From assembly GCF_902713615.1 (NCBI RefSeq), contig NC_052149.1:157976379-158040378 (forward strand): a stretch of DNA of 64,000 nucleotides, in the 5' to 3' direction. The DNA comes from Scyliorhinus canicula. Lineage: Eukaryota. This document shows, in pieces, positions 37,135 through 39,710 of the stretch. Position 1 is the stretch's first letter. Each line of letters starts with the position of its first letter. The notes under the pieces are model-generated. The model saw nothing but the letters and a program-made list of their open reading frames with translations. It was not told where the DNA came from and searched no databases. Position numbers and translations under genes: made by a program.

Positions 37135-39710
37135 GGGTGCCTTGGAGAAAAGGTGATACAGGAGGCTATGATCAGATTGTCCAACTCAGTAAGAGACGAA
37201 CCTATGACAACGGTTAAAATAGGAAATCATTATGTGAACCTTCTGGGCGATACCGGCGCTACTATGTTGTCTGTGGAAATAACTCACCGTGGAAATAACC
37301 CCCGGTGAGTCTTCTGTTGTCACTGTGGGAGTAGCCGCTATTCCCATGACTGAGCCAATATCACGCCCGACTAACCTGGAAATTGATGATATCCCCCTGG
37401 TTGATACTATGATTATTTCAAAAACTACGCCCCTCCCTCTGCTTGGCAGACAGACCCTCTACAAATTAGGAGCGGTAATACATTGCATTGATAATAGAAT
37501 GCTTATAGAACGGTCTCAAATACGAGCTCACCAGATGCAAAATTTAATAACTTCTGAACCTGCGCCGAATCGCTGTGTGTCTGTGTTGTATGCTGGCAGC
37601 TGAACGTTAATCCTTACAGCACCACTGTTTAAAAAAAAATTAAACTACAGGAAGTCTTACAAAAGATTACTGACCCTTGGGCACAGCTATTAAAACACCT
37701 GATAGAGTCCAGATGAGAGAATATAGTGACCCATTGCACAGTTTGGTATGCTCGTGAGGATGAGCATGCATACAATTTACAAACACAAAGTCACTTAGGA
37801 CAGCAGACCTCATTGCATATCACTCCTTTTTATTTTTCAGTGTTGTGGGATTAGGAATGTTAGTGACCCATAGTCAGAGGGACCTTTTTAGGATGGGTTT
37901 AACTTCAGAACCCCATTTAATATTGGCCCCAAGACATCCCGCTAAGGCAAAGCAAATAGGAGAAGTGATCAAAGAGGCCAAAGAAAAAAAAGTAATACAT
38001 AGGATTTATATTGAAATGGATGGATGAAATTGCCTGATAGAATTTTATGGCAAATAGGAGGGCAGAGTGACCTGGAAAGAGGAGCAATGGCCCGCTACAT
38101 TTGAAAGACAACAACCTCCCCGAGAGAGCCATCATTTACTCCCTTCAATCCTGGCCCAGGTACTGGCACATCGATTGGCCCAACATAAAAATCATGTTGG
38201 AAAAGTACATTCTGCCCCAGCGCGTAGGGTGCAGTTACAGAAGAACGTTGCCCTGCCCTGGCTTAAAACTATACAGGTTGGCACCAGAAGCAGAAAAAGG
38301 GATAGGGGGAGTGATCAATGCACTATTACAGCAAGGGGTGCTGAAGAGAACACAAAGCCCCTGTAACACCCCTATACTCTCCATTCCAAAAGTAGGAAGA
38401 CCCAACGAGTGGTGGTTTGTGCAAGATCTTAGAGCCATCAATAAAACTGTTATCACTATTGCTCCATTGGTGCCGGACACAAATGCCATTTTGTCTTCTA
38501 TACCACCAACAACGGATACTTTCTCAGCCTTTTTCTCCATTCCATTGAACCCAGAAAGTCAACATCTATTTGCCTTTACATATCGGAATTAACAGTATTA
38601 AAAGAGACTTGGACGCGTGCCAGTTGTCTGCAGGCTCAACATTCCCTCAATATGATGACAATTTAGTGATAGCCTCAGAGGGAGGGCTAGTTTGTCAACG
38701 GAATACCCTTTTGTTATTATCACATCTGGCAGAAAGAGGGCATAGGATCTCAATGGAGAAGTTGCAATTCTGTCAGGAGACAGTTCATCATTTGGGATTT
38801 CAGCTTCAGCAAGGACAGCGGAGGCTTGGGTCTGAAAGAATACAGGCCGCAGCAAGGGTTCCAACTCCGCATACAAAAAAGGAAATCCTCACCTTCCTAG
38901 GCATGGTGGGCTATTGCAGGCAGTGGATACCGGACTATGGAGAGATGGACGCAGTATTGCAAAAGGCTACCCGACAGGATGCCCCTTCAGTTATTGCCAG
39001 AGAGGGAGCAAGCATTTCGTAATCTGAAACAAGCCATGATTAGCGCCTCTGCCGTGGGACTTTCAGCAAGCCCTTTACTCTTTATGTGAATGAAGCAGGG
39101 GGATTTGCAACAGGGGTCCTGGTGCAAGAGCATTGAGGAGGGAAAAAACCCCTTACCTATTACTCGGTGTCCCTATGTGCTGTGGTAAAGGGTATGCCAA
39201 ATTGTTTAAGAGCAGTAGCAGCCATGGCGGCCATAGTAGAAAAAGGAGGCTATCAGTTTTGCTGCTGCTTAATTCATCCGCAACGCAGCATTTTACTGCG
39301 GCTTGACATACTGGGTACGGAGTAATCCTCTCTAAAACCAACTTTACCTACAAGCGAGCACCAGCTGTCAACCCTGCAACACTCTTGCCTGCGCCCTCAG
39401 AAGCAGAACATACGTATGACCATGACTGTTTACAATTGGTTGAAGCCACCACAACCCCTCGACCTGATTTATTGAGTCACCCACGAGAAAATCCGGACAT
39501 CATCTTTTTCACCAATGGATCAGCAAACAGACCAAATGATATGACCCTCCTGGCCGGCCATGCAATAGCAACTCCATTTGAGATAGTGGAAGCTTTTGCT
39601 CTGCCTTCGGGAACGTCTGCTCAAGCGGCCGAATAGTTTGCCCTTACTAAAGCATGTATTCTATCTAAAAATAAAACAGTCAATATTTATACTGATTCCC
39701 GATCCGCTTT

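Follow-up and report, generated by a model that had tools for sequence, protein, structure and literature searches.

A probable decayed CNPase-type 2H domain between protease and reverse transcriptase in epsilon-like endogenous retroviruses of Scyliorhinus canicula

In the Scyliorhinus canicula genome, a stretch of 64,000 nucleotides (contig NC_052149.1; hereafter the window) contains the remains of two related proviruses, called B (forward strand) and A (reverse strand). In provirus B, about 180 additional codons separate the protease from the reverse transcriptase (RT), and an equivalent block is found in A. An earlier note, made from the letters of this DNA, had read these codons as a CNPase-like 2H phosphoesterase domain: the extra block is indeed present, but it is longer than the ~150 codons proposed there. 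The locus thereby raises the question of whether the block descends from a viral enzyme and, if so, which reaction this enzyme would have catalyzed. The answer put forward here is that it is probably a decayed CNPase-type 2H domain of a fish epsilon-like class I Pol, and a putative cyclic-phosphate enzyme.

Two broken copies of the block

Provirus B (Table 1), which carries LTRs and env, belongs to the epsilon-like class I retroviruses, and its 2H block is situated between protease and RT. Pfam and tblastn detected what is left of gag, protease, RT, RNase H, integrase, and env, the protease motif being located at 37249 (Pfam RVP, E 0.0012). Its 5' and 3' LTRs show 10 mismatches in 397 nt, and the primer site at ~34791 presumably matches tRNA-Ser.

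Table 1. Features of provirus B and copy A (positions of the window)
Feature	Position	Strand	Remarks
Provirus B	34391-43607	+	LTRs at both ends
5' LTR, provirus B	34391..34787	+	397 nt; 5-nt target-site repeat just before
Primer-binding-site-like stretch, provirus B	~34791	+	Directly after 5' LTR
Retroviral protease remnant, broken, provirus B	37186..37560	+	Pfam RVP, tblastn
2H domain, first half, copy B	37645..37836	+	One frame, stop at 37714; profile positions 9-78, 18.5 bits
First catalytic motif H-C-T, copy B, complete	37732..37740	+	Equivalent of CNPase His230/Thr232; aligns with LHCTT of mouse CNPase
Frame break between motifs, approximate site	37828..37840	+	Common to copies A and B; no A/B indel there
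2H domain, second half, copy B	37839..38060	+	Stops 38025, 38055; profile positions 89-131, 17.0 bits
Second catalytic motif position, copy B	37914..37922	+	H-L-I, not H-x-[T/S]
Loop and helix after motif 2, copy B	37923..37991	+	Equivalent of CNPase beta5-alpha7 loop/helix alpha7
RT, connection, RNase H start, broken, provirus B	38151..39711	+	Pfam, tblastn
Env transmembrane-subunit remnant, provirus B	42464..42920	+	tblastn with P0013, E 8e-15
3' LTR, provirus B	43211..43607	+	Followed by the identical 5-nt target-site repeat
2H domain, copy A	23700..24080	-	Several frame breaks; 92.9% identical to B over 423 aligned nt
Motif H-C-M, copy A	23992-23984	-	T-H-C-M-A starts 23995
Motif H-L-T, copy A	23814-23806	-	P-H-L-T-L starts 23817

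Several rearrangements were observed around the block. In the gag of provirus B (36273-36834, + strand), a duplicated 93-nt stretch, 98% identical, flanks an inserted SINE-like repeat, a length that is unusual for a target-site duplication. Further downstream (39894-41170, + strand), about 930 nt with a SCAN domain, a zinc knuckle, and a protease motif replace part of the integrase. This foreign coding piece (40241-41170) has its source in another LTR element, presumably a Gmr1-like gypsy; it is in frame with the end of RNase H, yielding an open frame of 338 codons, and a distant relative of it lies at 58078-58580 on the - strand. The ~600 nt preceding the transmembrane remnant (41855-42460, + strand), where the env surface region would be expected, are short and broken, and this region was possibly partly deleted. 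As for copy A, its gap corresponds to positions 36115-37436 of B, with loss of the protease active site; its integrase is split by a GC-rich LINE-like element with a YADD motif at 18025 (16600-21040, - strand), and neither env nor a 3' LTR was found for this copy inside the 64-kb window.

Regarding the catalytic motifs, the histidine codons of B at 37732 and 37914, as well as the THCMA and PHLTL stretches of A, are located where the earlier note had placed them. In B, T-H-C-T-V starts at 37729 and E-P-H-L-I at 37908, the two histidine codons being separated by 182 nt and standing in different frames. Each copy possesses a single complete H-x-T, namely the first motif in B and the second in A, while 129 of the 130 relatives have a T or an S in the family column that faces the isoleucine of B's second motif. 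Besides, the one frameshift initially described is confirmed at ~37828-37840, but stops at 37714, 38025, and 38055 have to be added to it, the one at 38025 being present in copy A as well. Both motifs are thus nowhere intact in a single frame at this locus (H-L-I in B, H-C-M in A, frame breaks and stops in both): copies A and B are pseudogenes, and the enzyme cannot be encoded here.

The two copies have in common the inter-motif frame break, one stop (38025), a shift of frame where the RT begins, and RT gaps of 6 and ~18 residues compared to the closest relative. Since several breaks are common to both, A and B descend from an already defective template, which probably spread in trans. A stems from an insertion of its own and differs from B in its 5' flank. 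The corresponding stretches (37437-39710, + strand, and 22018-24283, - strand) are ~8% apart while the LTRs are just 69% identical, a pair of integrations that suggests a defective family mobilized in trans, with LTR turnover. A programmed frameshift at the inter-motif break was considered and rejected, as the intact relatives are continuous at that point and as A and B also share the stop and the RT deletions. The break being common to both copies, their comparison is uninformative at this site. Two frame pieces, which together extend over the block, the linker, and the beginning of the RT, were compared between A and B: of 201 codons, 6 differ synonymously and 23 non-synonymously. The substitutions look neutral, and no selection on the domain was seen after the A/B split. 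The idea that a two-copy consensus restores both motifs is right in that each copy has one complete motif, but the shared breaks make A and B weak, non-independent witnesses to the viral sequence. The real evidence for a viral domain comes from intact relatives and not from these copies.

Intact relatives and their predicted fold

Direct searches with pieces of the window gave little: no 2H family was found with Pfam, the second half of B recovered none of 56 candidates in a homologue search among proteins of 110-2000 amino acids, and a 40-residue piece submitted to a language-model atlas reached 0.87 at best, with CNPase and tRNA-ligase CPD clusters at 0.86, which is to be taken as a lead only. 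Because these searches failed, relatives were sought through the adjoining RT, and this resulted in 67 matches among 177 candidates, the best being a Pristiophorus japonicus protein (72% identical). In the 20 of these 67 where the protease-to-RT spacing is measurable, it amounts to 328-351 codons in 6 relatives with an insert and to 133-169 codons in 14 without, compared to ~340 codons in B. The long intervals contain an insert with two histidine motifs. A profile built from ten such inserts matched 421 clusters (50% identity) at E<=0.001 among 1.84 billion representatives; the best 150 of the 421 were inspected, and the other 271 could include cellular CNPases. The set examined comprises 216 proteins, 168 of which carry the domain, 130 at near full length.

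In these 130 relatives, the first histidine and its Thr/Ser are each conserved in 125, the second histidine in 128, and the Thr/Ser of the second motif in 129, and both H-x-[T/S] motifs are intact in 118, these counts being somewhat inflated by the motif-based selection of the seeds. The conservation of the motif pair in the family, on which the earlier interpretation depended, is thereby borne out, in domains whose mean identity is just 28%. In 31 of the 40 members with more than 100 residues on both sides of the domain, a protease motif and an RT motif are present together. The named members come from teleosts, hagfish, and cartilaginous fish (Heptranchias, Amblyraja, and Mobula, thus sharks and rays included), and the database proteins of the latter three genera carry the domain unannotated. 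The Pfam PF05881 cut-off was passed by none of 13 full proteins, and a single one out of ten individual members was touched by the Pfam CNPase model, below the cut-off (E 0.077). This sole member is one of P0007 and P0008, two epsilon-like Pol proteins of the hagfish Myxine glutinosa with intact domains. In the Heptranchias perlo ERV P0024 (residues 46-158), the domain is shorter, its first motif reads H-V-T, and an insertion precedes the second motif.

Against a profile of the 130 natural relatives, built without the block of the window, the B block (with X at the breaks) scored 46.0 bits, whereas the best of 2000 shuffled versions, 1780 of which returned a score, reached 7.6 bits; with an earlier 12-sequence profile, the values were 30.0 and 9.1 bits, respectively. 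When the whole window was scanned in six frames, no match ranked above the two halves of B (18.5 and 17.0 bits; E 4e-5 and 1e-4), and copy A gave a weak match (4.9 bits, E 0.55). The possibility of a chance motif pair is excluded by the profile score relative to the shuffles and by this ranking. Aligned to the family profile with hhalign, the first half of B obtained an E-value of 3e-4 (probability 39%) and the second half 1e-5 (probability 82%), and the identity of the block to its best relatives is mostly 25-33% over the longer matches. The block of copy B is almost certainly homologous to the fish retroviral 2H family, whose fold is predicted to be of the CNPase clade and whose catalytic motifs are near-invariant.

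Concerning the fold, the ten-sequence profile compared with the sequences of the PDB found CNPases as best matches, with both motifs covered (E 0.006). A deeper alignment, A2, gave weak CNPase matches (E 0.12 or worse) because it also included the start of the RT, and a single-sequence PDB search with the relative P0206 returned no match. The structure was predicted for another natural relative, P0120, and is transferred by homology to the block of the window, which is 31% identical to it over 87 columns. The AlphaFold model, obtained from a 91-row alignment, has a pLDDT of 92 and a pTM of 0.84. With Foldseek, it retrieved 50 matches at E<=0.001, every one listed being a CNPase or goldfish RICH (best E 8e-8, TM 0.61), so that a structure search of the kind suggested as a check, here run on a family member, turned out in favor of a CNPase-like identity. 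In the same line, VIA-align against 48,161 chains ranked mouse CNPase first (Z 17.2, rmsd 4.1, 168 residues aligned), followed by a bacterial CPDase (Z 8.9) and a LigT-type ligase (8.3), while the other 2H enzymes scored 7.7 (Acb1), 7.4 (ns2), 7.3 (AKAP18), 7.2 (VP3), and 6.4 (penguinpox cGAMP PDE). In a library of viral structures, the top three matches of the model were Q2VF30, which we take to be the SSSV polyprotein, WEHV1 Q9WHI8 (E 5e-10), and WDSV A4GTG3 (E 1e-9), the WEHV1 and WDSV matches being at the level of the whole polyprotein. In terms of language-model features, the nearest clusters were tRNA-ligase cyclic phosphodiesterases (0.94-0.95), with PF08302 on 63% of their members. By its predicted structure, the family is a member of the 2H phosphoesterases of the CNPase clade, the other 2H groups being clearly further away. 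The CNPase-like identity first proposed for the block is upheld by the profile match, the motifs of the relatives, and the P0120 model.

Vertebrate CNPase and RICH (PF05881; structures 2xmi, 1woj, and 2i3e) share with the viral domain the fold, the H-C-T motif, the aromatic residue at the position of Phe235 (Y or F in 112 of 130 relatives), and a helix beyond motif 2 together with a glycine 15 residues past the second histidine. Copy B and mouse CNPase both show this glycine spacing, as do 128 of the 130 relatives. The P0120 model also displays a helix at residues 124-136 following the strand 113-118, the equivalent of the beta5-alpha7 loop and helix alpha7, a feature that PMC4643303 describes as found in CNPase only. 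However, the viral domain is smaller (~170 versus ~215 residues), only 12-16% identical, and has a shorter inter-motif loop, with 59-69 residues between the histidines in 129 of 130 relatives compared to 79 in CNPase. It is embedded in a polyprotein, without the N-terminal kinase-like domain and the membrane anchor of vertebrate CNPase, and the equivalent of Arg307, which like Phe235, Tyr168, and Val321 is a substrate-binding residue of CNPase, is an arginine in just 2 of 130 relatives. According to the same source, the R307Q replacement raises the Km of mouse CNPase about fourfold (PMC4643303).

Possible activity and role of the viral domain

As judged from its clade, the ancestral viral domain quite probably carried out 2',3'-cyclic-phosphate chemistry. 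It would have been a metal-independent 2',3'-cyclic-nucleotide 3'-phosphodiesterase, converting a 2',3'-cyclic phosphate into a 2'-phosphate and a free 3'-OH, and the conversion of 2',3'-cyclic phosphate to 2'-phosphate is the chemistry given for CNPase in PMC4643303. Produced and packaged alongside RT in Pol, the domain would be delivered by the virion, where it could heal the cyclic-phosphate ends left on virion RNA or primer tRNA by host metal-independent RNases; alternatively, it might remove free 2',3'-cNMPs during reverse transcription. Such roles in end healing or cNMP removal, suggested by the position of the domain in Pol, are put forward tentatively, and a 3'-OH beside a 2'-phosphate may be a poor primer. 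In the literature searched, from which subscription papers were largely missing, no activity study of any retroviral 2H member was found. The fungal tRNA ligase CPD (PF08302) and phage RNA-repair 2H enzymes, nearest at the level of language-model features rather than of alignments, have the same predicted RNA-end chemistry, but they work with a kinase and a ligase, neither of which was seen in provirus B.

The placement in the CNPase clade favors 2',3'-cyclic-phosphate hydrolysis over the cleavage of 2-5A or cGAMP, the substrates that the earlier note had evoked and which now appear weakly supported. In that other scenario, which seems quite unlikely, the domain would be an immune-signal nuclease similar to coronavirus ns2, rotavirus VP3, or Acb1. 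MHV ns2, rotavirus VP3, AKAP7, Acb1, and poxvirus cGAMP PDE do share with it the superfamily, the 2H fold, and the two H-x-[T/S] motifs, the viral ones being virus-encoded likewise, and a substrate shift is possible in viral enzymes. However, they belong to a different 2H subgroup, occur as stand-alone proteins or in a capping-enzyme context instead of a retroviral Pol, and stand much further from the family than CNPase does (Z 6.4-7.7 for ns2, VP3, AKAP18, Acb1, and the penguinpox cGAMP PDE, against 17.2 for CNPase). Pol products are, moreover, low-copy and virion-bound, unlike typical accessory antagonists. To our knowledge, teleosts are devoid of OAS/RNase L, an absence that was not confirmed in the literature searched on the distribution of these proteins in fish. 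On the other hand, other viruses are stated to deploy 2H enzymes against immune signals in PMC8406329 and PMC9503650, and an elephant shark OAS protein is mentioned in PMC6307210. The 2-5A enzymes fall in a eukaryotic-viral LigT group, the four that were tested being LigT-group proteins with no cleavage of cGAMP (PMC8406329), whereas helix alpha7 is specific to CNPase (PMC4643303).

It is very unlikely that the domain acted mainly by binding, either as a decoy or competitor of host CNP or as an RNA-binding aid to RT. PMC3832489 presents CNP as an interferon-stimulated gene product reported to bind HIV Gag and to block assembly, and the viral domain, carried in Gag-Pol, is predicted to fold like CNP; CNP restriction in fish was nevertheless not shown in the literature searched. 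In the columns of the catalytic His and Thr/Ser, conservation amounts to 95-99%, against an overall identity of 28%, and since the active site is conserved so far above the rest, catalysis is argued for over binding.

Distribution among related retroviruses and significance

Among 78 proteins with enough RT, the domain is present in 38 and absent in 22, the remaining 18 being unscorable (15 of them outside the tree). It is thus absent in 22 of 60 scorable related viruses, and because many related viruses do without it, the domain is not essential. Those turtle and lizard elements that are named and whose protease-to-RT interval could be measured do not have it, nor does one clownfish element. 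On the RT tree, its presence requires 5 changes (the starred branches force 3) compared to 18.3 with shuffled labels, 0 of 500 shuffles reaching so low a count. In addition, identity in the domain goes along with identity in RT (Mantel rho 0.65 over 29 proteins; 0 of 999 permutations). On this midpoint-rooted tree, one old gain followed by several losses would be the simplest reading. The RT row of the window, which spans 39% of the columns, is sister to the Pristiophorus japonicus protein with a support of 99/97, making a cartilaginous-fish origin of the provirus plausible from the sequence. The attribution to a shark ERV lineage therefore agrees with the closest RT, but the module itself is widespread and old in fish Pol and is no novelty of the shark lineage.

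From the empty Pfam and protein searches with window pieces and from the other foreign coding piece of provirus B (40241-41170), it could be imagined that this single provirus lineage recently acquired a piece of a host CNP or, again, that the motif pair arose by chance. This is extremely improbable and, barring a domain tree in which the block falls among host CNP genes, is refuted by the profile, viral-structure, and RT-tree results, given the 421 clusters matching the family, the protease and RT motifs in 31 of 40 members with long flanks, the clustering of presence on the RT tree, and the structural matches to the WEHV1 and WDSV polyproteins.

The domain is indeed not new to the literature. 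PMC9503650, which cites Mazumder 2002, states that fish retroviruses, WDSV among them, contain 2H domains, and PMC4977317, which cites Basta 2009, that epsilon-like ERVs of ray-finned fish in some cases encode CNPase or macro domains, so that the earlier mention of teleost retroviral reports is accurate. With the domain of WDSV, WEHV1, and teleost epsilon-like ERVs, the block of the window has in common the position between protease and RT, the motif layout, and the spacing; it differs in that both copies of it are broken and that its identity to the nearest intact relatives is for the most part 25-33%. The locus is therefore a decayed copy of a module that had been described from fish retroviruses in 2002 and again in 2009, and it adds little to these reports. 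No report of a cartilaginous-fish example was found in the literature searched, although ERV surveys may already annotate the domain; in their accessible parts, an elephant shark ERV paper (PMC4422223) does not mention it, the word 'phosphodiesterase' being absent, WDSV reviews do not mention it either, and PMC10515750 and PMC8672886 contain no relevant passage.

The family picture is more useful than the locus, as it reveals a large family with strongly conserved catalytic motifs, reaching hagfish, sharks, and rays without passing the Pfam model, and specifically CNPase-like. In its most extended form, the proposal would be that a CNPase domain was an ancestral fourth enzyme of class I Pol, present from hagfish to teleost viruses with several losses, packaged with RT, and healing cyclic-phosphate ends. 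This is unlikely to hold as a whole; if true, it would introduce into retroviral replication an RNA-repair step that is not described in the papers searched. The CNPase-like placement narrows the likely substrate, and natural intact members, for instance in zebrafish XP_021322528.1 or in the WDSV polyprotein, are available for enzyme assay. Finally, according to PMC4643303, it is not settled which substrate CNPase itself uses physiologically, and a viral CNPase-like domain tied to reverse transcription could inform its identification.
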